Assembly (NCBI GenBank): GCA_903831305.1
Contig: CAIKXE010000005.1
Span: 11,288 to 75,287 of the forward strand
Direction of reading: 5' to 3'
Source: an uncultured bacterium
GTDB taxonomy: Bacteria; Patescibacteriota; Minisyncoccia; Phycocordibacterales; GWA1-40-21
Length of the DNA stretch: 64,000 nt
Made by a program: the position numbers and the translations under genes. Shown piece by piece: positions 4,323 through 34,043 of the stretch (position 1 is its first letter; the number at the start of each line of letters is the position of its first letter). The notes below the pieces were generated by a model that saw only the letters and a list, made by a program, of their open reading frames with translations, was not told the origin of the DNA and searched no databases.

Positions 4323-5426
4323 ATGCCGAAAAAAGTAGATAAAACATTTTTAATTTCGTTTTTTGCCCTACTCATCAGTGGCTTGGTGATTTTTATTTCT
4401 GCCTCGCTCGGTATTTATGCCCGGGACAATGCCAAGTTTACTTCTATCATCTTTAGTCAAATTTTCATCGGACTTTTTATGGGGCTTATTGCTTGCTTTA
4501 TCGTTTCCAAAATCAATTATAGGTACTGGCGTAAATTTTCCTTTTATATTTTCTTATTGTCAGTTGGCGCCACCCTCTTGGTCTTTATCCCAGGTGTTGG
4601 TGTTTCCCACGGTGGAGCTACTCGCTGGATTTATATTGGTAATATGTCTTTCCAACCATTAGAGCTTCTGAAAATTGGCTACATTATTTATTGGGCAGCG
4701 TGGATCGGTGAGGTAAAAGAGAGAATCCAAACTATTCGTTGGGGGCTTTTACCTTTTATGATTATTACCGGTATCGTCGGTGTGGTACTACTCTTACAGC
4801 CAGACACGGATTCATTTGTTATTATTTTTTCAGTCGGCTTGGGTATGTATCTGGTAGGGGGTGGTAAGTGGCGTCATATCTTTTCCATTATCATTATCGG
4901 CTTCATCGGTGTCTCCGCGCTCTTTTTTATGCGTCCATACTTACTGGACCGGTTGATGACCTTTATCAACCCGGCTGATAATCCACTCACCTCTGGTTAT
5001 CAGATCCAGCAGTCACTCATCGCCGTGGGTTCCGGTGAATTATTTGGCCGAGGCTTGGGCCAAAGCATCCAGAAATTTAAATATCTGCCAGAGTCCATCG
5101 GTGACGCCATCTTTCCCATTGCGGCTGAGGAGTTTGGCTTTATTGGGGGTATTATTATTATTTTTCTCTTTCTTTTTTTTATTTCTCAAGGGCTCAAAAT
5201 CGGCGGGGGAGCACCAGACTCATTTAGTGGACTTTTAGTCATCGGAATTGCTATACTTATAACCATCCAGTCATTTATAAACATTGCCTCAATGATTGGC
5301 GTCATACCGCTTTCAGGCTCACCTTTGATCTTCTTTAGCCAGGGGGGGACTGCCTTGTTTTTTACCTTGGCGGAAATAGGTATGATTATAAATGTATCCA
5401 GAAGTAAAAAATTATTAACTAGCTAA
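4323..5426 (+). CDS. ftsW: SEDS-family peptidoglycan glycosyltransferase FtsW/RodA
   Basis: Roughly ten TM helices. IAVGSGELFGRGLGQSIQKFKYLPESIGDAIFPIAAEEFGFIGG is the conserved SEDS periplasmic loop. Confidence 0.85.
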   Translation: MPKKVDKTFLISFFALLISGLVIFISASLGIYARDNAKFTSIIFSQIFIGLFMGLIACFIVSKINYRYWRKFSFYIFLLSVGATLLVFIPGVGVSHGGATRWIYIGNMSFQPLELLKIGYIIYWAAWIGEVKERIQTIRWGLLPFMIITGIVGVVLLLQPDTDSFVIIFSVGLGMYLVGGGKWRHIFSIIIIGFIGVSALFFMRPYLLDRLMTFINPADNPLTSGYQIQQSLIAVGSGELFGRGLGQSIQKFKYLPESIGDAIFPIAAEEFGFIGGIIIIFLFLFFISQGLKIGGGAPDSFSGLLVIGIAILITIQSFINIASMIGVIPLSGSPLIFFSQGGTALFFTLAEIGMIINVSRSKKLLTS

Positions 5427-5440
5427 TTTAATATTATCAG

Positions 5441-6571
5441 ATGAAAATATTATTGACCGGTGGGGGATCAGGGGGACACTTTTATCCGCTTATTGCCGTA
5501 GCCGAGGCGATAAATGATATCAGTAAAAAGGAAAACCTCGTTTCCGCTGATTTGTATTTTATGTCTGATAGTTCTTATGATGCTGAGGCTTTGATAGAAA
5601 ATAATATTACTTTTATCTCCATCCCCGCCGGTAAAATCAGGCGTTATGCTTCTATCTTAAACTTTTTTGATATTTTTAAAACTATCTACGGCTCACTTGT
5701 AGCCCTAAAAAAGGTTTTCAGCCTTTACCCAGATGTCATCTTTAGCAAAGGCGCTTATGCCAGTTTCCCTGTTTTGTTGGCGGCCAGATTATTACGAATC
5801 CCGGTGATTATCCATGAATCAGACAGTGTACCTGGTAAAACGAACCTTTGGGCGTCTAAATTTGCTAGAAAAATAGCTATTTCCTATCCAGATTCGGCTA
5901 AATATTTTGCCCAGGCAGATAAAGTAGCCTATACCGGTAATCCTTTGAGGAAATCTGTTCTAAATATCAGCCGGTCTGGGGCACATGAATTTTTTGGTTT
6001 AGAGAAAAGTATACCCACTATTTTAATTATCGGTGGGTCACTTGGGGCCAGATTGATCAATGAGCGCATCCTAGATGCCCTGCCAAAGCTCATTGAACGT
6101 TATCAGATCATCCACCAAACCGGTAAGGCCAACGTAAAAGAAGTATCCGAGACTTCTAAAATTATCATCGGTGAAAATACCAATAAAGAGCGTTACCATA
6201 TTTTTGATTATCTTAATGATTTGAATCTGACCATGGCGGCCGGTGCCGCTGATCTGATTATTTCTCGAGCGGGTTCCACTATCTTTGAGATAGCCTCTTG
6301 GGGTATACCCAGTATTGTCATTCCAATCACGGAGACAAATGGTGATCATCAACGCATAAATGCCTATGCTTTTGCCAGAAGTGGAGCTTCCTCAGTAGTA
6401 GAAGAGGCTAATTTGACCACCAATGTCCTGATTACGGAGATTGACCGCGTTTTACAAGATCAAGCCCTCCGTGACCGGATGTCCACCGCGGCCAAGAGCT
6501 TTACCCACCCGGATGCTGCTACCAAGATTGCCCAAGAGCTTATCAATATTGCCTTAACCCACGAAGAATAA
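5441..6571 (+). CDS. murG: UDP-GlcNAc:undecaprenyl-PP-MurNAc-pentapeptide GlcNAc transferase MurG
   Basis: N-terminal MKILLTGGGSGGHFYPLIAVAEA G-loop and a GT28 C-terminal domain. Confidence 0.85.
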   Translation: MKILLTGGGSGGHFYPLIAVAEAINDISKKENLVSADLYFMSDSSYDAEALIENNITFISIPAGKIRRYASILNFFDIFKTIYGSLVALKKVFSLYPDVIFSKGAYASFPVLLAARLLRIPVIIHESDSVPGKTNLWASKFARKIAISYPDSAKYFAQADKVAYTGNPLRKSVLNISRSGAHEFFGLEKSIPTILIIGGSLGARLINERILDALPKLIERYQIIHQTGKANVKEVSETSKIIIGENTNKERYHIFDYLNDLNLTMAAGAADLIISRAGSTIFEIASWGIPSIVIPITETNGDHQRINAYAFARSGASSVVEEANLTTNVLITEIDRVLQDQALRDRMSTAAKSFTHPDAATKIAQELINIALTHEE

Positions 6572-18262: not shown

Positions 18263-19483
18263 TTATAAATAAATTCTTTTAATTAGTGGATTGAGGCGAG
18301 TGATAAATTCATAGGCACTACCGGAGAGTAAGCCGGCCACATCATCCACCGTTATTACTTCTTCACCATCTTGGCCAATGATTGTCACCTCATCACCCAC
18401 TTTTACTTTTTTAATATCTGTGACGTCCACCATAATTATATCCATACAGATTCGCCCTAGCACTTTTGCTCTTTGACCGTTCACAATGACCTGACCAATA
18501 CCAGATAGAGCGCGAGGAAAACCATGCCAATACCCCACTGGGATGACCGCCACCTTGGAATCCCGCTTGAGCTTTTCCGTAAAGTCATAACCAATCCCTT
18601 CCTCTTTTTTAATATTATTTATTTCACCAATTATCGTTTTCCAACTTAGGGCTGGAAGTAGATTAAAAGGCTGTTTGGATAATGATTTTTGAGTGTCTGG
18701 TTGAGCCCTACCTATGGCGACCCGAGGACCGAAAAAGTCATTATCCGAATTGCCTTTTTGTGCATATTCCCTTGTTTCCGCTGACGGCCAAATACCGTAG
18801 AGCCCAATCCCTACCCGGACCATATCAAAGTGAGCTTCAGGAAAAAGGATTGTCCCAGAAGTAGCACAAGCGTGACAAATGGGTTTAAGCCCGGCCTTCA
18901 TAAATGCCTCGCGCCACACCTTAAATATTTTAATTTGATTTTTAGTCTTCTTGGGAAAGGCTGGATCTTTGGCACTGGCAAAGTGTGTATACAAACCAAC
19001 GACTTCAATTTGTCTTGTCATTCGAATTTGGCTAATCACCTTTTTAATATCCTTCTCCTGAAAGCCGTGCCGGTGCATCCCCGTGTCTACTTTTATATGC
19101 ACTCGCAATTTATTCTTCAATTTCAATTTTCTAATCTCATTAAAATAATCAAAATTGGAAACAGTGATATCCAGATTATTAGTCACCGCCTTTTCAATCA
19201 TCTCTGGTAAGATATAACCCAGAATTAAAATCGGACTTTTTATTCCCTCCCGCCGTAAAGCTATCCCCTCCACCACAGAATCCACCGCCAGATAATCCAC
19301 CTTGAGCTTCTCTAGCTCTTGAGCAAATTCAATCAGATTATGTCCATACGCATTGGACTTGACCACGCCCATCAGCTTTGTTTCAGGAGTTATCAAAGCT
19401 CTAAAAGAGCGGTAGTTATGGGCTATCGCCTTCTTATCTATCTCAATCCAAGTCCGCAGTCCTTTCCGCAGTTCTTTTTTCAT
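18263..19483 (-). CDS. alr: Alanine racemase, with a ~30-aa insertion relative to canonical Alr
   Basis: PLP-Lys motif AVVKSNAYGHN and C-terminal GRICMDIIMVDVT. The insertion is YAQKGNSDNDFFGPRVAIGRAQPDTQKSLSKQ. Confidence 0.8.
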   Translation of the reverse strand: MKKELRKGLRTWIEIDKKAIAHNYRSFRALITPETKLMGVVKSNAYGHNLIEFAQELEKLKVDYLAVDSVVEGIALRREGIKSPILILGYILPEMIEKAVTNNLDITVSNFDYFNEIRKLKLKNKLRVHIKVDTGMHRHGFQEKDIKKVISQIRMTRQIEVVGLYTHFASAKDPAFPKKTKNQIKIFKVWREAFMKAGLKPICHACATSGTILFPEAHFDMVRVGIGLYGIWPSAETREYAQKGNSDNDFFGPRVAIGRAQPDTQKSLSKQPFNLLPALSWKTIIGEINNIKKEEGIGYDFTEKLKRDSKVAVIPVGYWHGFPRALSGIGQVIVNGQRAKVLGRICMDIIMVDVTDIKKVKVGDEVTIIGQDGEEVITVDDVAGLLSGSAYEFITRLNPLIKRIYL

Positions 19484-20229
19484 ATATTATAAATCATATC
19501 CTTGCGCTCTACGACCACCTTCCAACCATTTTTCTTAGCATGCGTATACAGCTTTTTATTCGGATTAAAACAGATCGGATTATCCACCATTTTGAGTAGC
19601 ACAATATCACTTTCCGTATCCCCCACTCCCACAGAACCATTAAGGGTGAGCCCTTCTTTTTCTACGGCTCGCAGTAGTACTTGGGACTTGTCAGAAATAA
19701 ATTCTTCAAATAAAGTCACCCCGGTGAATTTGTCATCCGCCCCTACTTCATATATTCGGCCGTAAGTTTTATCAAAACCATATTTCTTACAAAAGTTTTC
19801 TACCAACACCTGCGGTGAATGTGAAATAGCCAAGATAAAATAGTTTTTCTTTTTGAGTTCTTTAATCAGATCCCTGGTGTAAGTGTAAACCTTGTTGTTA
19901 TTCTCACTGATTACCTTTTCCGCAATCCTAGAAAACACTTTGGCATCTAGTCCCTTAATATTTTGCATAAAGGCTCGGACCACCGCCATGATATAGTCCT
20001 CATAACTCCCCTCGCGGTTCGTCCATTTTTCAAAAGCTTTCAGATATATATCTCTAGTATTCTCAGGGAATATTTTCTCTTTAATCAAGACCTCAACTAC
20101 TTCAATTAGTAAACTGGACCTAAAAATCGTCCCATCAATGTCAAACACCGCCACTTTTCTTTTGACACTTTTCCCCTCAGCCGGCTTGTTTTTAGATGTT
20201 TTACTCATATGGTAATTATACCACAGCAC
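19480..20229 (-). CDS. HAD-superfamily hydrolase (HAD-IB / phosphoserine-phosphatase-like)
   Basis: Motif I VAVFDIDGT and later HAD motifs (GVGDTESD). Overlaps alr by 4 nt. Confidence 0.65.
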   Translation of the reverse strand: MLWYNYHMSKTSKNKPAEGKSVKRKVAVFDIDGTIFRSSLLIEVVEVLIKEKIFPENTRDIYLKAFEKWTNREGSYEDYIMAVVRAFMQNIKGLDAKVFSRIAEKVISENNNKVYTYTRDLIKELKKKNYFILAISHSPQVLVENFCKKYGFDKTYGRIYEVGADDKFTGVTLFEEFISDKSQVLLRAVEKEGLTLNGSVGVGDTESDIVLLKMVDNPICFNPNKKLYTHAKKNGWKVVVERKDMIYNI

Positions 20230-20232
20230 CCC

Positions 20233-20278
20233 TTATTCTCAATTAACCCATTCGTACGAATGGGTTAATTGAGAATAA
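20233..20278. promoter_or_regulatory. 46-bp perfect palindrome (copy 1 of the ACCCATTCG-nn-CGAATGGGT motif) immediately upstream of the HAD gene and downstream of the ArsR gene
   Basis: TTATTCTCAATTAACCCATTCG-TA-CGAATGGGTTAATTGAGAATAA is exactly self-complementary over 22+22 nt. Confidence 0.6.
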
Positions 20279-20316
20279 ATTGAGATTATGGATTATGGAG
20301 TAGTGTGGAGTGGGGG

Positions 20317-20577
20317 TTAGGAATTTGAGATGATGAGTTTGGTGATCGGATGAACGGGCTCACTGAGGCTGTAAAACATGGACAGACCAACTTGTTCCCC
20401 ATCCACGATGTCCGAGGATTTTAAAACACCGAGGTGCTTGGAGGTAGATTTGAATGACAATTTAATCTGCTCAGCCAGAATCCCCACTGTGCACTTTTTG
20501 TGTGAGAATAAATATTTTACAATCTCCATCCGCCGGCGGTTAGCCAGGGCCTTCATAAAACGTTCAAATTTCTTCAT
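20317..20577 (-). CDS. ArsR/SmtB-family HTH transcriptional regulator (ATG at internal Met; ORF-track start is a GTG)
   Basis: ALANRRRMEIVKYL...CTVGILAEQIKLSFKSTSKHLGVLKSSDIV is an ArsR winged-HTH. Confidence 0.75.
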   Translation of the reverse strand: MKKFERFMKALANRRRMEIVKYLFSHKKCTVGILAEQIKLSFKSTSKHLGVLKSSDIVDGEQVGLSMFYSLSEPVHPITKLIISNS

Positions 20578-20617
20578 TCCCCTATTATACACCTATATAT
20601 ACAATTATCCTCTATTC

Positions 20618-20636
20618 ACCCATTCGCGCGAATGGT
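20618..20636. promoter_or_regulatory. Palindromic motif copy 2 (ACCCATTCG-CG-CGAATGGT), ~40 nt upstream of the ArsR start
   Basis: 8-bp arms around CGCG. Flanks TAT TCACCC...GGTTCCATAGAC are shared with copy 3. Confidence 0.5.
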
Positions 20637-20794
20637 TCCATAGACTGGGGGGAACAAAGGTGAGACCTTGAATCTCCAAAAAGGTCTCACCTTAAAGAGT
20701 AGTCGAAATATTTTTAATAAAAGGTACCTTGCTGTGCCCGCCCGAAGCCATGTGTCCAGCGAGACATTAGCGAAGGAGGGACACCTTTTTTGCC

Positions 20795-21838
20795 TTATTT
20801 TAGCCTTTTTGCAAGATATTCTCTTTCTTTTCTAATAAATTCTGCTCCCTTTTGATAATCTCCATTATTCACAAAGTCTCTGACTCGACGCGGATTAATA
20901 CCATGCTTTTCAACGACATCCCATAATTTTTGGGCATTTCCATCTAAAGAAGCGGCTCGCATGATCTCTGGCCCAACCAATGTTTCCAATTCCCTGGATA
21001 GCGCAAATTCATCTCCGTTATTTATATGACCTTCCATGTATCTCTTCGTCTCGTCGTCTTCTGTGCTTTCCCGCATATCCTTAAATAATAATTCAGCCGA
21101 CAGATGATCGGTAATCATTTCGTTTAAATTTTTATTCTTCAATTCTCTCTTACCAGAAACCAAATCAATTCTTCCTGTTTGCACGCCAGAACAAAATTCA
21201 CAACAATTGTCATGAAACTCTATCTTACTAAAAGATATTGCGTGCATCATCTCGTGTAATAAAAAATGCCTTAAGGTCATCCGCCCAACAAATTCCCTGT
21301 ATCTATCGGGGTGCTCTTGCACAGTCTCCGCAATTATTTCGCGCAATTCTGCAATAAGTCGCTTATTAATGTTCACTTGATGCCTTTGAGGGTCATAAAA
21401 AATAATTCTCGCAAAACCATCTAGTCCAGTGGCGCTAATATAATTTTCATACTCATCTCCATCGATCAACGCATACCTTACATCGTCCAAGCGCTCCATC
21501 CTATCGGGATAATTAGTGGCAACCAACCTCAAGTTGTCTGTCACAGCTTTTTGGACCCAATCTATCCCCATATTTTCCGCCAATTCTCTAGAAAAACCTT
21601 CTACAGAAAGCGCATAGCTATCCCTGTCAATGAATTTGTAAAAATTTGTAGTGTCTATTGGGGCGCCATCCTTTATTAACAAATCGACAAGTTTTCCCGG
21701 AAAACCTATTTTAGTGCCTTGCAAATCTTCTTTCACGCTTTCTGCTAAATAAGCCAGCCTTTGCTGCAAATCAGTTGTGTCTGTCACTAGCGATGATTCA
21801 TTGGTGGTATTCACATCTCTATTTGCAGTTTCTACCAT
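20795..21838 (-). CDS. HExxH zinc metallopeptidase-like protein (HEMMH + downstream Cys cluster), hypothetical
   Basis: RHFLLHEMMHAISF followed by FHDNCCEFCSG. No signal peptide. GC is slightly higher than neighbours. Confidence 0.4.
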   Translation of the reverse strand: MVETANRDVNTTNESSLVTDTTDLQQRLAYLAESVKEDLQGTKIGFPGKLVDLLIKDGAPIDTTNFYKFIDRDSYALSVEGFSRELAENMGIDWVQKAVTDNLRLVATNYPDRMERLDDVRYALIDGDEYENYISATGLDGFARIIFYDPQRHQVNINKRLIAELREIIAETVQEHPDRYREFVGRMTLRHFLLHEMMHAISFSKIEFHDNCCEFCSGVQTGRIDLVSGKRELKNKNLNEMITDHLSAELLFKDMRESTEDDETKRYMEGHINNGDEFALSRELETLVGPEIMRAASLDGNAQKLWDVVEKHGINPRRVRDFVNNGDYQKGAEFIRKEREYLAKRLK

Positions 21839-21994
21839 AAATTTAAATTAGTTAATAATGATTATATTATAAACCCATTTCCCCGAGGATTCAAACCATC
21901 CATCTATTTTTTAAAAGGTTCCTGACACCTTTTTCTCCTTTTTTCTAAAACCTATTCGCCTATTTTGGCGAATGCAGTCAATTTTTTCCTATTT

Positions 21995-22013
21995 ACCCAT
22001 TCGTACGAATGGT
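21995..22013. promoter_or_regulatory. Palindromic motif copy 3 (ACCCATTCG-TA-CGAATGGT)
   Basis: Same core and the same flanks (TATTTACCC...GGTTCCATAAAC) as copy 2. An adjacent second palindrome ATTCGCC-tatttt-GGCGAAT sits at 21954-21973. Confidence 0.5.
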
Positions 22014-22106
22014 TCCATAAACCGTACGAAGTCTTTGGGTCAGGAGTAGTATGATTCCGACGATTATGAGTATGAATAGGATGATTTGTATGGTTTTCAT
22101 ATTGAT

Positions 22107-22280
22107 TAATTTTTGCTTTTTTCTTCGCCAATTTCACCTTTTCGGGTATTCTTTTCGATTTTTTCTAGCAACTCCTCTATTCTATTTATTTTCCAATACC
22201 ACAGAATAATTTCACGAAAAATAAAAAATGCAAACCCAACAATACCTATTCCGATCAAAATCAAACCAATATTACTCATG
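22107..22280 (-). CDS. Small single-TM protein (57 aa), hypothetical; not in the ORF track (<60 aa)
   Basis: Minus-strand ORF MSNIGLILIGIGIVGFAFFIFREIILWYWKINRIEELLEKIEKNTRKGEIGEEKSKN. It is AT-rich and lies directly downstream of the GmrSD gene. Confidence 0.3.
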
Positions 22281-22293
22281 ATATTAAATTTTT

Positions 22294-22470
22294 TTATTTA
22301 AATAAATTAATAAAAGCCTGTTTATAATCTCCACTATACAGATTTTGATTAATATTTCCAATATAGTTGCCGGACCCTGAATTATTATAAATCTTATCTG
22401 TCATAAAAAAATAAATACCTATTGATATAATTAGAAATAATATTAAAATATAGAGCCGTGCATTCTTCAT
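22294..22470 (-). CDS. Small secreted/TM protein (58 aa), hypothetical
   Basis: Minus-strand ORF MKNARLYILILFLIISIGIYFFMTDKIYNNSGSGNYIGNINQNLYSGDYKQAFINLFK with a signal-anchor-like N-terminus. Confidence 0.3.
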   Translation of the reverse strand: MKNARLYILILFLIISIGIYFFMTDKIYNNSGSGNYIGNINQNLYSGDYKQAFINLFK

Positions 22471-22532
22471 AGGGATATTATATCAAGGTTTTTAAATATA
22501 CAAAAGAAGTAAAAATAAATACTTTTCATACA

Positions 22533-24278
22533 TTATATTTTCCAAGCATCATTATATGCTCTTTTTGCAAGTTTTTTTGTTCTTTCGTTTATATTTTTAA
22601 TTACTTCATCAGATGTTTTCATTTTTTCATTTTTCCACTCGTTAATTAAAACTTTGACCTCAGGAAGATTTTGAATTTCCATTTCCTTAAAAGTATCAAG
22701 TTTTTCTTTAATATTTTTATTTTGTTCTGAACCATTCGTATGTTTACTTATAACCAAAAGGTTCCCTATACTATCGATGTACTCTCCAACTTCATCCTCA
22801 TTAAAATTATAATTATCCATATTTTGAGATATAAGATGATCTATATCATAATTTCTCCTAAGAAGCTTTTTGTCTGAGTTATAAATCTCAATATATTGTC
22901 CTCCTTTTCTGTCGATATTATTTAGACGATCAAAAATATAATAAATTAGATTTGAATTCAAGCCATATGTAAGTTCGGAAAACTTTTCGACAAATTCCCC
23001 TTCTTTTACCAGTTTTTCATCTCTTAATTCTTTATTAATTTTTTCAATAAAACTAATAAAATTATTTTTATTTACCTTTTCCCTACATTTGTCTGCATAG
23101 TATTTTTCTATTTGGTTCCCAGGTCTTTGGCAAATTGCGTAATTAATAAAATGAAACTTTTCTAACATATAAATAAATTCTCGGAATTTTTTTGATAATT
23201 TTTCCTTTATGTCTTTGTCATTTGTTAAGTCAATAATAGTTAAGAGTTTAACGATAAGGGGATATGCCTGTGTTACACCAAATAGCTGGAGAGCATCTAG
23301 GCTTCGATTCAAGGTTTTTGCCTCATATTCCTTCCTAAAAAAGTCATTTTTACTTTCAACTGCCCACTCCAAAATTGATTCATATGAGCAGCTAACTATT
23401 ATAGAATAAAAATATGAAAAATCCTTCATCTCAGATAATAATTTACTTGCCCCAATGTTTTCGCCATACTTTTTAAGAAGTTTAAATAATAATTTTTTTT
23501 GTACAAGCCCAAAAATAGACACATAAAAGTATTTAATCATTCGAAGAACATTTCCAGAAGAGTTTTCAATAATAGTATTCCAGTCCTCTTCTGTCTTTTT
23601 GGAATTATTATTTTGGAATAAATAGTTTTTTAATAAATCAGCGGCGTTTAATTCCATACCTCTTGCATTTGTTCTTTCAAATATATCAAATGCATCTTGT
23701 GTATCCTCAATTTCTATTTTTACAAAGGTACTTTCATATAATTTTTTCAGTAGCTCAGACAAATCATCCTTATTAAATTTTGAAATGTGCTCAATAAAAA
23801 AATCATAGAGGGGTTTAATCCTGTTTGTTTGCCTTTGTTTATTTTTTAAGTTAAAGCTTTTTCCGTCCCAGTCGTGATTAGTAATTGTCTCATTAAAAAC
23901 TTCAATGATTGATGATGAGGGTATTAGTTTTGATGAACTAGCCTTACCTGAGGTATCATCTATGAAGGAAATCTTAGACTGAATAGCAGATGCTAAATCA
24001 TGAGAGTTTAGCTTTATTGCTTGATATCTACATGCGGCTAAAAAAATAAAAATGGTCGTTATTCTTTGTTGACCATCAACTATCGAGATTTCAGCCTCTT
24101 TCTCATTATTTACGTCTAGTACTATTGTGCCTAGGAATACAGGCTCTGAAGAAACATCATCCCAAAATTCCTCTATCTGATCCTTTTTCCATTCAAAGTT
24201 TCTCTGATATTCTGGGACAACATATTTAACACTTTCATCTAGTAAACTCCTAACTTTCTTTAATTCAGATTTAATCAT
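22533..24278 (-). CDS. GmrSD-family type IV (modification-dependent) restriction endonuclease: N-terminal DUF262 (ParB/Srx-like NTPase) + C-terminal DUF1524 (His-Me finger/HNH-like nuclease)
   Basis: DUF262 motifs YQRNFEW and IVDGQQR at the N-terminus. C-terminal DIDHLISQN...GNLLVISKHTNGSEQNK fits DUF1524. Very AT-rich (~27% GC). Confidence 0.75.
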   Translation of the reverse strand: MIKSELKKVRSLLDESVKYVVPEYQRNFEWKKDQIEEFWDDVSSEPVFLGTIVLDVNNEKEAEISIVDGQQRITTIFIFLAACRYQAIKLNSHDLASAIQSKISFIDDTSGKASSSKLIPSSSIIEVFNETITNHDWDGKSFNLKNKQRQTNRIKPLYDFFIEHISKFNKDDLSELLKKLYESTFVKIEIEDTQDAFDIFERTNARGMELNAADLLKNYLFQNNNSKKTEEDWNTIIENSSGNVLRMIKYFYVSIFGLVQKKLLFKLLKKYGENIGASKLLSEMKDFSYFYSIIVSCSYESILEWAVESKNDFFRKEYEAKTLNRSLDALQLFGVTQAYPLIVKLLTIIDLTNDKDIKEKLSKKFREFIYMLEKFHFINYAICQRPGNQIEKYYADKCREKVNKNNFISFIEKINKELRDEKLVKEGEFVEKFSELTYGLNSNLIYYIFDRLNNIDRKGGQYIEIYNSDKKLLRRNYDIDHLISQNMDNYNFNEDEVGEYIDSIGNLLVISKHTNGSEQNKNIKEKLDTFKEMEIQNLPEVKVLINEWKNEKMKTSDEVIKNINERTKKLAKRAYNDAWKI

Positions 24279-24327
24279 ATATATATTATAGTACTAAATT
24301 ACAATCCTGACCATTTTTTAAGTATTG

Positions 24328-24564
24328 TCAATTAAATATTGTACCAGGATAATCTAGCATCCCAACTATTGATGACGTTCCATTAACGGCTGAAGATACT
24401 CTAATTAGGCCTCCAAAATTACTTGCAGAGTATGATTCTTCAAGGGAATGAGGTTCTTCTTTAGTAAGACATTTCTCACAAACCAGACTGACGCTACTGT
24501 TAATAGATAATAGTACAATGAACGTAGTTGCCCCACAAATTTTGCATTTGCTAGTTAGACCCAT
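24328..24564 (-). CDS. Small zinc-ribbon-like hypothetical protein
   Basis: CKICG...CEKC four-Cys arrangement. Lies between the copper module and the GmrSD gene on the same strand. Confidence 0.3.
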   Translation of the reverse strand: MGLTSKCKICGATTFIVLLSINSSVSLVCEKCLTKEEPHSLEESYSASNFGGLIRVSSAVNGTSSIVGMLDYPGTIFN

Positions 24565-32743: not shown

Positions 32744-34000
32744 TCATAAAAATAGCAGATTACGATCCAGATCATCATGGTCAGTTCCCTTGCCTTTCTT
32801 TTTTAGTGCCTTTTGAGTGGAGGCTAAATAAACTACTCGTTTGCCAAATTTCTCTTCTAAACTATCCAGCTGTTTGTGAATCAGCTCAAATTTATTTGCC
32901 TTTATGTCACTTCCAAATAAATCTCCTTGAGATACTTCACTAGAAATAAGCTCCCCCAGAGTCACCCCGGTAGTCCGGTACTGAATTCCCGCTTGATGCA
33001 TCTCTGATAAATAAGCCTTGGCTAGGGGGATAATTATCTCTGGAGCAGAAGTTGGGCCACTTAAAGTAAGCTGACATTTATAATATTTAAAATTTTGACT
33101 TTTAAGAAAAAAGAAAACTTTTTTGGGGACCAGGTGATAATGCCTGGCTTTAATACAGGCTTCCTCAATATTTTTTGATAATTGTGACAAAAGAAAAACC
33201 GGATCATTGGTAGGTGGGTAAAAAGTCCTCGTTTTTTGGATAGAAGAATATACGGTTTTAGGAACGGAATCTATTTTTGACATATACTCCCCTTGCAGTT
33301 CCCGCCACATCTCCTCATACGGCCGAGACAAGTTATATTTCACCCAAGCCAAATCCTTGTTTATAAAATCTAGAGCTGTTTGAATACCTCTTTTCTGTAA
33401 AAACTCCGCCGTCTTGGGGCCAATACCCCAGATTTTGCCAATAGGTGTTTTAGTCAAAAAAACTGGAATAGTTTCCATATTAATCACAGTTAGTCCGTTC
33501 GGCTTTTGCCACTTGGAAGCGACCTTGGCCAGGACTTTGGTCGGAGCTAGGCCAATGGACACTGATAAATTTAATTCATCACTTATTTCTTTTTTAATTC
33601 GCTCGGCAATCTGCCGGTAAGTCATCCGCAAGGGTGGCTCAAGCCCCGTCAGATCAGCAAAGCATTCATCAATACTGTATTCCTCCACCTCATCCGCATA
33701 CCGCCGAACAATCTCAAACATCATTGCTGAATAGTGAGCATAAGCCTGATAGTCACCGGGTAAAACTATTACCTGGGGAAAATCTTTCTTTATTCGATAG
33801 ATGGGCATACCGCGGATAATACCAATAGCTTTAGCCTCATAGGAAAGCGCCGAGACAATCCCGCGTTCTTCCCCGGTCACCACTGGTTTGCCTTTCAGTT
33901 TGGGATTTTTAGCCATCTCCACGCCCACAAAAAAAGCATCACCATCCATGTGAAAAATAGTTTTGGTTTTTATTATTTTAGTCTGACCGGATTCATTCAT
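32744..34000 (-). CDS. dinB: Y-family translesion DNA polymerase IV (DinB-like)
   Basis: IFHMDGDAFFVGVE, SIDECFADLTG and little-finger/HhH regions. Confidence 0.8.
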   Translation of the reverse strand: MNESGQTKIIKTKTIFHMDGDAFFVGVEMAKNPKLKGKPVVTGEERGIVSALSYEAKAIGIIRGMPIYRIKKDFPQVIVLPGDYQAYAHYSAMMFEIVRRYADEVEEYSIDECFADLTGLEPPLRMTYRQIAERIKKEISDELNLSVSIGLAPTKVLAKVASKWQKPNGLTVINMETIPVFLTKTPIGKIWGIGPKTAEFLQKRGIQTALDFINKDLAWVKYNLSRPYEEMWRELQGEYMSKIDSVPKTVYSSIQKTRTFYPPTNDPVFLLSQLSKNIEEACIKARHYHLVPKKVFFFLKSQNFKYYKCQLTLSGPTSAPEIIIPLAKAYLSEMHQAGIQYRTTGVTLGELISSEVSQGDLFGSDIKANKFELIHKQLDSLEEKFGKRVVYLASTQKALKKKGKGTDHDDLDRNLLFL

Positions 34001-34043
34001 CCAGACATTATACTACAAAGTGAACGAATGTTCACTAGGAGTT

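Follow-up and report, generated by a model that had tools for sequence, protein, structure and literature searches.

A candidate ArsR/SmtB-family regulator and its putative palindromic operators, conserved across Patescibacteria

Three palindromes in a 64-kb window (the whole stretch of DNA that was analysed) are probably operators of an 86-aa ArsR/SmtB-family protein encoded between two of them, and their placement suggests that this protein controls its own gene as well as an adjacent operon headed by a HAD phosphatase gene. Protein and palindrome form a candidate regulator-operator pair that is conserved across Patescibacteria, with an invariant core ATTCG-YR-CGAAT, a defined promoter geometry and a number of predicted targets. 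The preliminary description of this DNA had proposed operators of the ArsR-family protein, with autoregulation through copy 2 and HAD control through copy 1, and this reading is supported by the comparison of related sequences, in which the layout is conserved and protein and site change together.

Palindromes, genes and promoters in the window

The features of the region are as follows.

18263..19483, minus strand: alanine racemase gene, whose first 4 nt overlap the end of the HAD gene
19480..20208, minus strand: gene for a HAD-IB family phosphatase (PF12710; TIGR01490 at 106.9 bits, cut-off 98.3)
20215..20242, minus strand: predicted HAD promoter, with TTGAGA (20242-20237), a 16-nt spacer, TGg-TATAAT (20220-15) and 6 nt to the ATG at 20208
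20233..20278, no strand: copy 1, a 46-bp palindrome with 23-nt arms, 100% complementary and without a gap; core ATTCGTACGAAT at 20250-20261, putative 12-2-12 operator at 20243-20268
20317..20577, minus strand: arsR, encoding an 86-aa ArsR/SmtB-family winged-helix regulator with the recognition helix LSFKSTSKHL
20584..20589, minus strand: arsR -10 box TATAAT, with AGGGGA separating it from the ATG (predicted leaderless)
20615..20640, no strand: copy 2, a putative 12-2-12 operator upstream of arsR; core ATTCGCGCGAAT at 20622-20633
20659..20691, minus strand: stem-loop GGTGAGACCTT...AAGGTCTCACC between the HExxH gene and copy 2; the repeat also occurs at loci L111 and L112
20795..21938, minus strand: HExxH (HEMMH) orphan gene (ORF 20795-21838) with its own conserved promoter region
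21954..21973, no strand: wide-spacer palindrome ATTCGCC-tatttt-GGCGAAT, 41 bp from the centre of copy 3
21992..22017, no strand: copy 3, a 12-2-12 site; core ATTCGTACGAAT at 21999-22010

Exact matches to CCATTCGNNCGAATGG were found at 20248-20263, 20620-20635 and 21997-22012, where the preliminary description had located its three copies. Shuffled sequences gave an expectation of 0.10 matches in the window and no shuffle reached three, and a search of the 64-kb window allowing two mismatches yielded no fourth match. All three copies share the core CCATTCG-nn-CGAATGG. With a weight matrix made from 119 related sites (consensus ATttACCCATTCG-yr-CGAATGGGTaaAT), copies 1, 2 and 3 score 37.8, 45.2 and 43.6 bits, respectively, while the next-best score in the window is -9.6 and the maximum in shuffles is 7.4. 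Other elements of the earlier account were likewise reproduced, namely the perfect 46-bp palindrome of copy 1 with its fully complementary 23-nt arms, the flanks common to copies 2 and 3 (82% identity over 44 nt), the second palindrome at 21954-21973, and the position of each copy 5' of a minus-strand ORF (HAD, arsR and HExxH at 19480-20208, 20317-20577 and 20795-21838).

Copy 1 follows the stop codon of arsR and precedes the HAD promoter, with its centre at -47.5 from the HAD ATG, which is also the predicted transcription start, and the TTGAGA -35 box falls within its outer arm. Copy 2 is centred at -50.5 from the ATG and predicted start of arsR, and its half-sites are hybrid (ACCC/AACC). The distance from core to ATG is 41 nt for copy 1, 44 nt for copy 2 and 160 nt for copy 3, the last being 157 nt when measured from the 19-bp copy of the preliminary description. 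The wide-spacer palindrome carries operator half-sites 10 nt apart instead of 2, and may be either an operator that decayed by losing 8 bp at its centre or a hairpin acting as a weak terminator; comparable forms were found only at L111 and L112. No known RNA family and no tRNA att site was detected in the window, L111 or L112.

The arsR, HAD and HExxH genes each have a -10 box of their own. The HAD promoter matches the consensus at 11 of 12 positions, has the TG extension and is kept at the related locus L010, where HAD is again the neighbour of arsR. Since the alanine racemase start overlaps the HAD stop, these two genes are probably co-transcribed. Measurements at 19 promoters, whose -10 boxes end 5-9 nt before the ATG, place the operator centres at about -40.5, -50 and -63, over a span of -40.5 to -68.5; the -10 box is TG-extended in 16 of the 19.

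The ArsR-family protein

The arsR product exceeds the cut-offs of NCBIfam NF033788 (61.0 bits, cut-off 55) and Pfam HTH_5 (25.3 bits, cut-off 22). Its AlphaFold2 model (pLDDT 94.4) has the topology a1-a2-a3-a4-b1-b2-a5, with helices at residues 3-12, 14-26, 31-38, 42-54 and 77-85, strands at 58-63 and 66-71, and a4 as the recognition helix. By family models and predicted structure, the protein is thus a member of the ArsR/SmtB family with a canonical winged helix. Foldseek matched the model to HlyU, CzrA, CadC, PagR, NolR and SmtB at TM 0.75-0.86, the HlyU and CzrA matches reaching 0.8-0.86 (HlyU 4ooi, TM 0.81). The best sequence match among solved proteins is HlyU 3jth (E = 6e-12) at an identity of only ~30%; this entry was deposited as a transcriptional activator.

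A metal or metalloid site, whether a Cys motif in alpha3/alpha3N or Asp/His/Glu residues in alpha5, is absent from the homolog alignment. Cys is not conserved, C29 being present only in the window protein and in P0002; the sole invariant His, H48, belongs to the recognition helix, and alpha5 shows no conservation. Moreover, the matrix scan found no operator site at the nearby CsoR-CopA-HMA/DsbD-cupredoxin cluster. With the conserved ligand residues absent and the copper cluster devoid of a site, metal sensing was rejected.

Conservation beside arsR in relatives

Comparison with relatives, which the preliminary description had recommended, showed that palindromes accompany arsR in most homologs. 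Among distinct homologs (35-92% identity), the motif ATTCG-yr-CGAAT precedes the arsR gene in 22 of 25 cases and stands just downstream of it in 23 of 26. Homologs that were found by protein and not by motif gave the same picture, eight of nine having the upstream site and eight of nine the downstream one, and their arsR neighbours differ (HAD, PNP, TP_methylase, CarboxypepD_reg-like, unknown). The site-arsR-site layout is kept down to ~35% protein identity. As the upstream site adjoins arsR in 22 of 25 homologs, its position points to autoregulation.

At loci L105 and L106 the downstream site stands between convergent genes, before no gene start. The region upstream of arsR is variable, with Fic at L010 and the HExxH gene and a GmrSD island in the window; L010 keeps copy 2, and its homology to the window begins at 20645, the outer edge of this copy. 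YR forms the central dinucleotide with few exceptions; this step is deformable, as would suit recognition of the site as DNA.

Residues S41, F42, T45, S46 and H48 of the recognition helix are invariant, as is the operator core. A branch with the changes K43N and S44A has a changed core, ATTCG-CTA-CAATT, and each of the paralogs at L015 and L027 has sites of its own half-site flavour on its flanks. No simple code linking helix residues to half-site flavours emerged.

The HExxH gene and copy 3

Although copy 3 lies upstream of the HExxH gene, the earlier assignment of this gene to the regulon was not borne out. Profile search matched the protein to no family, and the near-orphan has homologs in four clusters only. 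The block of homology corresponds to window positions 21938-20798, which includes the gene's own promoter and leaves out copy 3, and the homologs elsewhere have neither arsR nor a canonical operator alongside. These observations suggest that the HExxH gene is a unit inserted between copies 3 and 2, and that copy 3 is a distal or tandem arsR-type operator which the insertion parted from copy 2. Tandem sites before one gene occur at six loci (L031, L038, L071, L078, L081 and L089). The stem-loop at 20659-20691 is probably the HExxH terminator.

Distribution and predicted targets

In 185,579 genomes, a scan with 20-mers found 82 matching stretches where ~9 were expected, ~74 of 80 being in Patescibacteria MAGs, and a metagenome scan added 104 more. 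A scan of viral contigs returned none, and a phage-borne element was rejected on this ground. Most dispersed sites were gathered by motif search, so that statistics beyond the protein-first loci are biased to the query pattern. Genomes hold 3-8 copies, and the strict sites, 3-6 per MAG, lie on different contigs. Of 272 sites, about 77% fall between genes; the median distance to the next start is 79 nt, and the sites usually lie 15-180 nt upstream of it. The spacer length is fixed: 2 nt was counted at 128 sites, compared with 0.8 expected, and all other spacings are at chance level.

Among the targets, arsR alone recurs strongly, with 28 genes, of which 21 fall below 90% identity. Sites in other genomes precede single-copy housekeeping genes such as secA, polA, glyS, dnaX and pyrF, and the two-gene regulon proposed earlier is too narrow, given that relatives hold 3-6 strict sites before unrelated genes on different contigs. 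About 13 of 30 annotated targets are tied to nucleotide or DNA metabolism (DHFR, RibD_C, NUDIX, MazG-like, AIRC, AIRS, AICARFT/IMPCHase, OMPdecase, PNP, PIF1, Pol I, DnaX and GIY-YIG/MTES_1575). A nucleotide-metabolism theme of the regulon is only a lead from annotation, with subjective categories and few recurring families besides arsR. An equivalence to the SOS/LexA system was rejected, as the dinB-like gene has a separate Cheo-type box upstream.

Discussion

Operator model

We propose that the protein would bind as a dimer to a 6-2-6 core, (c/a)ATTCG-YR-CGAAT(g/t), which lies within an inverted repeat of 12-2-12 or more, and that long sites may take up two dimers. Bound to copy 2, at -50.5 of the leaderless, TG-extended -10 promoter of arsR, it would regulate its own synthesis. 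Copy 1, whose centre at -47.5 puts it directly against the -35 box of the HAD-alanine racemase promoter, would control that operon. The bound protein would most likely hinder RNA polymerase at the -35/UP region and so repress, for which there is precedent in the family, and a non-metal signal would release it from the operator. Copy 3 would be a third site of this kind, now cut off from arsR by the inserted HExxH gene. Across Patescibacteria the pair would be conserved, with a small, dispersed and lineage-variable regulon. The data show the sites, their conservation beside arsR, the joint change of protein and site, the site positions with respect to promoter elements and the fold of the protein; binding, repression in preference to activation, leaderless starts and the history of copy 3 are steps that we infer.

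Activation or repression

The same geometry could serve an activator. Bound at -40.5/-50.5/-62.5, the ArsR-like protein might activate or de-silence by recruiting RNA polymerase to promoters with an extended -10 and a weak -35 box. The operator centres near -40.5, -50 and -63 are about one helical turn apart, several arsR promoters have no recognizable -35 box, operators at -47 to -69 miss the core promoter, and the nearest solved relative, HlyU, was deposited as an activator. We nevertheless regard this as unlikely. The spacing comes from 19 promoters only, among them off-phase centres at -43.5, -47.5, -53.5 and -65.5, and sites 11-12 nt from the -10 box (before the rmlB-like gene at L027 and arsR at L089) would block polymerase. 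With its -35 box close to consensus and its -10 box extended, the HAD promoter of the window needs no activator. Most characterized ArsR/SmtB proteins are repressors (PMC8790569).

Palindromes as nucleic-acid structures

It is improbable that the palindromes are mainly structures, either RNA hairpins that terminate or stabilize transcripts or DNA cruciforms, with a secondary link to arsR. Perfect palindromes of 30-46 bp are frequent among the sites, and dyad symmetry is site-specific: homotypic pairing is 0.66 compared with 0.27 expected from shared half-site preference, and outer positions stay more symmetric after flavour control (p = 7e-4). A site is always found past the arsR stop, even before a convergent gene (L105), the wide-spacer versions with T-runs at L111 and L112 resemble terminators, and assemblies break at the 46-bp palindrome. 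However, the core stays the same throughout the phylum and it is the stems that differ, whereas a constraint on structure alone would give the reverse pattern. With only 2 nt between the arms, no loop can form unless the stem opens, yet 128 sites have this spacer and just a handful have any other; hybrid sites, window copies 2 and 3 among them, break arm complementarity. Copies 1-3 have no T-tract and were not flagged by the terminator scan; the combination of a G+C-rich stem, a 3-8 nt loop and a T-tract typical of intrinsic terminators is absent from them and present in the wide-spacer forms of L111 and L112. Furthermore, -10 boxes that end 6 nt before the ATG place the sites upstream of the transcripts they precede, and none matches Rfam.

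The site-specific symmetry hints at hairpin or cruciform effects, or at template-switch mutation, on top of protein recognition. A dual purpose, in which the operators both bind the regulator and extrude as hairpins or cruciforms, is a long shot. If true, template switching would 'perfect' each site's own arms, centre-deleted or expanded derivatives would arise (window 21954-21973, L111, L112), the sites would be insertion hot spots for orphan genes such as HExxH, and the arsR flank would be a cassette-like variable locus in Patescibacteria that is independent of a recombinase.

Another factor or a mobile element

Control by the arsR product itself also has to be weighed against binding by a different transcription factor, for which arsR would be one conserved target among others. 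The dispersed regulon, larger than is usual for a local ArsR, would accord with this, but arsR alone adjoins the sites consistently, on both sides and in every lineage; recognition helix and operator core change together, each paralog has its own flavour, and a 6-2-6 core within a 12-2-12 repeat is typical of the ArsR/SmtB family. We therefore consider a different factor very improbable.

Hardly tenable is the reading, offered earlier as an alternative, of attC-like or other recombination sites delimiting single-gene cassettes, or of a REP-like mobile repeat: the variable region upstream of arsR, the orphan HExxH gene between two sites, the HExxH-palindrome order with the same arms at L111/L112 and the four near-identical 36-bp copies in genome CAZVSK speak for it, but no Phage_integrase or other recombinase was found among the window ORFs tested (genes within 10 kb on either side and 20 further ORFs), the genes have their own promoters, unlike the promoterless cassettes of integrons, the same sites elsewhere precede the housekeeping genes listed above, and the sites are perfect or near-perfect palindromes of 26-46 bp 5' of promoters, while attC sites are imperfect and 57-141 bp long. 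A generic REP-like repeat, which the preliminary description had named as a refuting outcome, was rejected as well, with 3-8 copies per genome instead of tens to hundreds, the largely intergenic and promoter-proximal placement, the fixed spacer and the empty viral scan.

Comparison with known systems

ArsR/SmtB-family proteins bind 12-2-12 inverted repeats that sometimes overlap the -35 box (PMC8790569). The sites described here resemble SmtB/CzrA operators in their 2-bp centre, arms of ~12 bp, position at or near the -35 box and location beside the regulator gene, but differ in the half-site, ATTCG as opposed to the TGAA/TTCA type (PMC8790569). Family models and fold (CzrA, TM 0.8-0.86) also liken the protein to SmtB/CzrA repressors, from which it departs in lacking the alpha3N/alpha5 metal site and any conserved Cys/His outside the recognition helix. 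Its predicted targets do not include metal efflux genes, its regulon is scattered, and the gene has a site on either flank.

HlyU of Vibrio is small, has no metal sites and counteracts silencing at a few virulence promoters. Of the solved proteins, this non-metal-sensing family member comes closest in both sequence and structure, but at only ~30% identity, and it is unlike the present protein, for which autoregulation with an invariant core is predicted phylum-wide. The E. coli R773 and chromosomal ArsR proteins are encoded by an autoregulated first gene, with the operator just upstream of the -35 box and not over the -10 box. The centres at -47.5 and -50.5 are similar to this, whereas the As(III)-sensing Cys triad is absent here and the E. 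coli operator is an imperfect repeat of other sequence. A gene flanked by palindromes that are also dispersed intergenically recalls REP elements at RAYT genes, a resemblance only: the flanked gene encodes a winged-helix DNA binder without a catalytic domain, and copy number is very low, with a fixed spacer and promoter placement.

The genomes of Patescibacteria (CPR) are tiny and encode few transcription factors, and to our knowledge there is almost no experimental information on how genes are regulated in them. Our literature searches found no description of this ArsR/palindrome pair. The name ArsR should not be equated with metal sensor, as this subfamily has no metal site and leaves the adjoining copper-resistance cluster untouched. 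The pair is most likely a gene switch of an ordinary kind, though an undescribed one, and a single 86-aa protein with short DNA duplexes would be enough to test it, with no need for culture.

Palindromes and Genes at the arsR Locus

A motif search located CCATTCGNNCGAATGG exactly at 20248, 20620 and 21997 in the window, confirming the three palindromes of the preliminary description, and no further match with up to two mismatches was found there (chance expectation 0.10). With a weight matrix derived from 119 related sites, copies 1–3 score 37.8–45.2 bits and the runner-up position in the window −9.6. Copies 2 and 3 are 82% identical over 44 nt. Copy 1 is indeed a perfect palindrome.

Palindromes and neighboring genes (window positions)
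19480–20208, minus strand: HAD-IB phosphatase (HAD)
overlapping the HAD stop by 4 nt, minus strand: alanine racemase
20233–20278: copy 1, perfect 46-bp palindrome
20317–20577, minus strand: ArsR-family protein, 86 aa (arsR)
20615–20640: copy 2
20795–21838, minus strand: HEMMH protein, 347 aa, no family (HExxH)
21954–21973: additional palindrome, ATTCGCC-tatttt-GGCGAAT
21992–22017: copy 3

The additional palindrome equals an extended operator minus its central 8 bp, one mismatch aside, and such wide-spacer variants of the half-sites are confined to this lineage, where they also lie 3' of HExxH in loci L111 and L112. Several independent metagenome contigs of this strain (L005, L006, L007, L008; ends at 20233–20295) terminate in or at the 46-bp palindrome, and L006 has a fold-back; the palindrome is an assembly break point.

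Beyond HExxH, upstream in the direction of transcription and likewise on the minus strand, follow two small ORFs, a GmrSD restriction enzyme and a cupredoxin/HMA-DsbD/P-type ATPase/CsoR cluster, while the remaining window is core chromosome (MraY, FtsW, MurG, tRNA synthetases, ATP synthase, RNase III, RNase R). The segment at ∼22030–24560 has ∼28% G+C, compared with ∼41% elsewhere in the window, and carries the type IV enzyme GmrSD (22533–24278) with two membrane-like ORFs of ∼57 aa; the segment, situated between arsR and the copper cluster, resembles an acquired defence islet. A Fic gene takes its place in L010. Farther away, the Cheo-type LexA box TGAACATTCGTTCA (GAAC-n4-GTTC, ∼34016–34029) precedes by 7 nt the TATAAT of a gene (32744–34000, minus strand) for an IMS/DinB-like polymerase and looks like a classical SOS operator, separate from the ArsR sites.

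The Palindrome Accompanies arsR in Relatives

Loci were fetched by protein homology (92, 72, 58, 56, 58, and 48% identity, plus a second paralog). They carry an ATTCG-nn-CGAAT palindrome 30–105 nt 5' of the arsR start and another within ∼80 nt past the stop, although the neighboring genes vary. Overall, 27 distinct arsR homologs were collected, with an upstream site in 22 of 25 and a downstream site in 23 of 26; in L105/L106 the latter falls between convergent genes. A 2-nt spacer is present in 128 sites against 0.8 expected, every other spacing being at chance level, and the central step is YR in nearly all sites.

The only gene consistently adjoining the sites is arsR. Within its recognition helix, LSFKSTSKHL, residues S41, F42, T45, S46, and H48 are invariant, a conservation equal to that of the operator core. 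In the branch of homologs P0062/P0068/P0077 the helix reads LSFNATSKHL, and the operators keep the outer arms ATTCTCTAAT while the core is altered to ATTCG-CTA-CAATT or ATCC-AACG-GAAT. In L015 and L027, with two paralogs each, the sites on either side of a paralog have a half-site flavour particular to it, and the paralogs differ at the helix start. The conservation beside arsR, the joint change of helix and core and the family geometry support the proposed reading as ArsR operators for copies 1 and 2, and support its extension to a putative phylum-wide regulator–operator pair; copy 3 as an operator of HExxH did not hold up.

The ArsR-Family Protein

The arsR product exceeds the thresholds of ArsR/SmtB family models. 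Its confident structure model (pLDDT 94.4, topology α1-α2-α3-α4-β1-β2-α5) superposes on HlyU, CzrA, CadC, PagR, and NolR with TM values of 0.75–0.86. Proteins of ∼86 aa form one family, all source-named members of which come from Patescibacteria. Since the alignment of homologs contains neither a conserved Cys nor an α5-type metal site, the protein does not count functionally as a metalloregulator. In keeping with this, a weight-matrix scan of the window found no operator site at the neighboring copper cluster.

Promoter Geometry

A TATAAT box (at least 5/6 matches) ends 5–9 nt before the ATG in 18 of the 42 window genes, as compared to 4.6% of random positions; examples are 20584–20589, 20215–20220, and 34007–34012. 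Only 2 of the 42 have an SD-like motif, and the organism is SD-poor. Since the boxes are so close to the ATG and SD-like motifs so rare, first genes are apparently leaderless, and the two operators flanking arsR were therefore positioned relative to predicted start sites. Related CPR loci display the same pattern.

The arsR promoter (minus strand) reads TATAAT (20589–20584), AGGGGA, ATG (20577), with the center of copy 2 at −50.5. The HAD promoter (minus strand) consists of TTGAGA, a 16-nt spacer, TGg-TATAAT (11/12 matches), 6 nt and ATG (20208); copy 1 is centered at −47.5, its outer arm containing the −35 box. L010 shares this arrangement. Over 19 such promoters, 16 of them with a TG-extended −10 box, operator centers fall at −40.5 (4), −47.5 to −53.5 (7), and −62.5 to −68.5 (7), overlapping or abutting the −35/UP region. 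This placement fits repression by hindrance, as is general in the family, activation being a less likely alternative.

Dyad Symmetry and Additional Half-Sites

The dyad symmetry is site-specific, as the arms of one site agree better with each other than with the arms of further sites of that genome (homotypic pairing 0.66, expected 0.27; outer positions with flavour controlled, 3.98 vs. 3.00 of 6, p = 7e-4). The longest perfect palindromes are the sites flanking arsR. Paralog-specific flavours account for part of this symmetry; possible sources of the residual are two dimers per site, cruciforms or template-switch mutation. At some canonical sites (L015 6261, L027 3997, L043 2834, L070 2073, and L071 940) a third half-site follows in tandem, 8 bp farther out (CGAAT-AGG-CGAAT). 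The common outer GAGAAT/ATTCTC arms resemble a weaker version of it, a hint that an operator may bind more than one dimer.

Copy 3 and the HExxH Gene

The HEMMH protein belongs to no Pfam or NCBIfam family, and a set of 5.8 billion proteins holds just four clusters of it, with identities of 84% or more, making it by these searches a near-orphan. Its homology block (21938–20798) comprises its own conserved promoter and the ORF. L111 and L112 carry HExxH in other contexts without arsR or a canonical operator, and in L010, where the Fic gene is upstream of arsR, homology to the window starts at the outer edge of copy 2 (20645). Copy 3 thus does not serve as an operator of HExxH. Elsewhere, one gene can be preceded by tandem sites (L031, L038, L071, L078, L081, L089), from which we infer that in the simplest history HExxH was inserted between two tandem operators.

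HExxH moves between contexts together with its promoter: in L111 the gene adjoins MazG-like and SLFN-helicase/S24 proteins, in L112 a Dam-like methylase and YCII. The stem-loop GGTGAGACCTT...AAGGTCTCACC (20659–20691) recurs in L112 (3348–3397, 4032–4079) and L111 (5813–5851) and is a small terminator-like element repeated in this lineage. The motif TCCCTCCTTCGCTA...CTTCGGGCGGGCAGG, which has no Rfam or tRNA match, lies 3' of HExxH in the window (∼20725–20795) and L111 (∼5044–5094) and 5' of it in L112 (∼2142–2193). After HExxH in L111, ∼550 nt (∼5250–5800) are relatively G+C-rich, with many hairpins and no ORFs, and lack Rfam matches even with the E-value limit relaxed to 1; they may represent a decayed gene or a non-coding RNA not yet described.

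Distribution and Regulon

The strict 20-mer AMCCATTCGYRCGAATGGKT was scanned across 185,579 species, one genome each, and matched 82 stretches against ∼9 expected. Of the 80 listed, around 74 come from Patescibacteria MAGs, the other 6 being at chance level. Single MAGs have 3–6 strict sites spread over different contigs. Metagenomes added 104 stretches, and the viral scan gave zero matches. With crude gene calling, ∼77% of 272 sites are intergenic, at a median of 79 nt from the next start. On the few copies per MAG, the fixed spacer and the promoter placement, a generic REP-like repeat is rejected. Likewise, the attC-like cassette sites considered in the preliminary description are rejected, no integrase having been found among the window ORFs tested.

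Since an arsR homolog adjoins the site in just about a quarter of loci, the sites probably mark a small dispersed regulon. Among clustered downstream proteins, arsR is the sole strongly recurrent target (28 genes, 21 of them below 90% identity), and an MTES_1575-type endonuclease, PyrF, RmlB-like, SecA, and GlyRS recur weakly; that many annotated targets belong to nucleotide/DNA metabolism is only a lead. One MAG (CAZVSK01) has four near-identical 36-bp copies of ccccactgaaccATTCGCGCGAATggttcagtgggg (L053 5123, L067 1864, L083 4541, L096 227) inside ORFs by crude gene calls, which may be a locally amplified operator form.

No published description of this regulator–operator pair was found in the searchable literature. 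Its sites match, with a 6-2-6 core inside a 12-2-12 palindrome (arm-spacer-arm), the operator geometry documented for the ArsR/SmtB family (PMC8790569).
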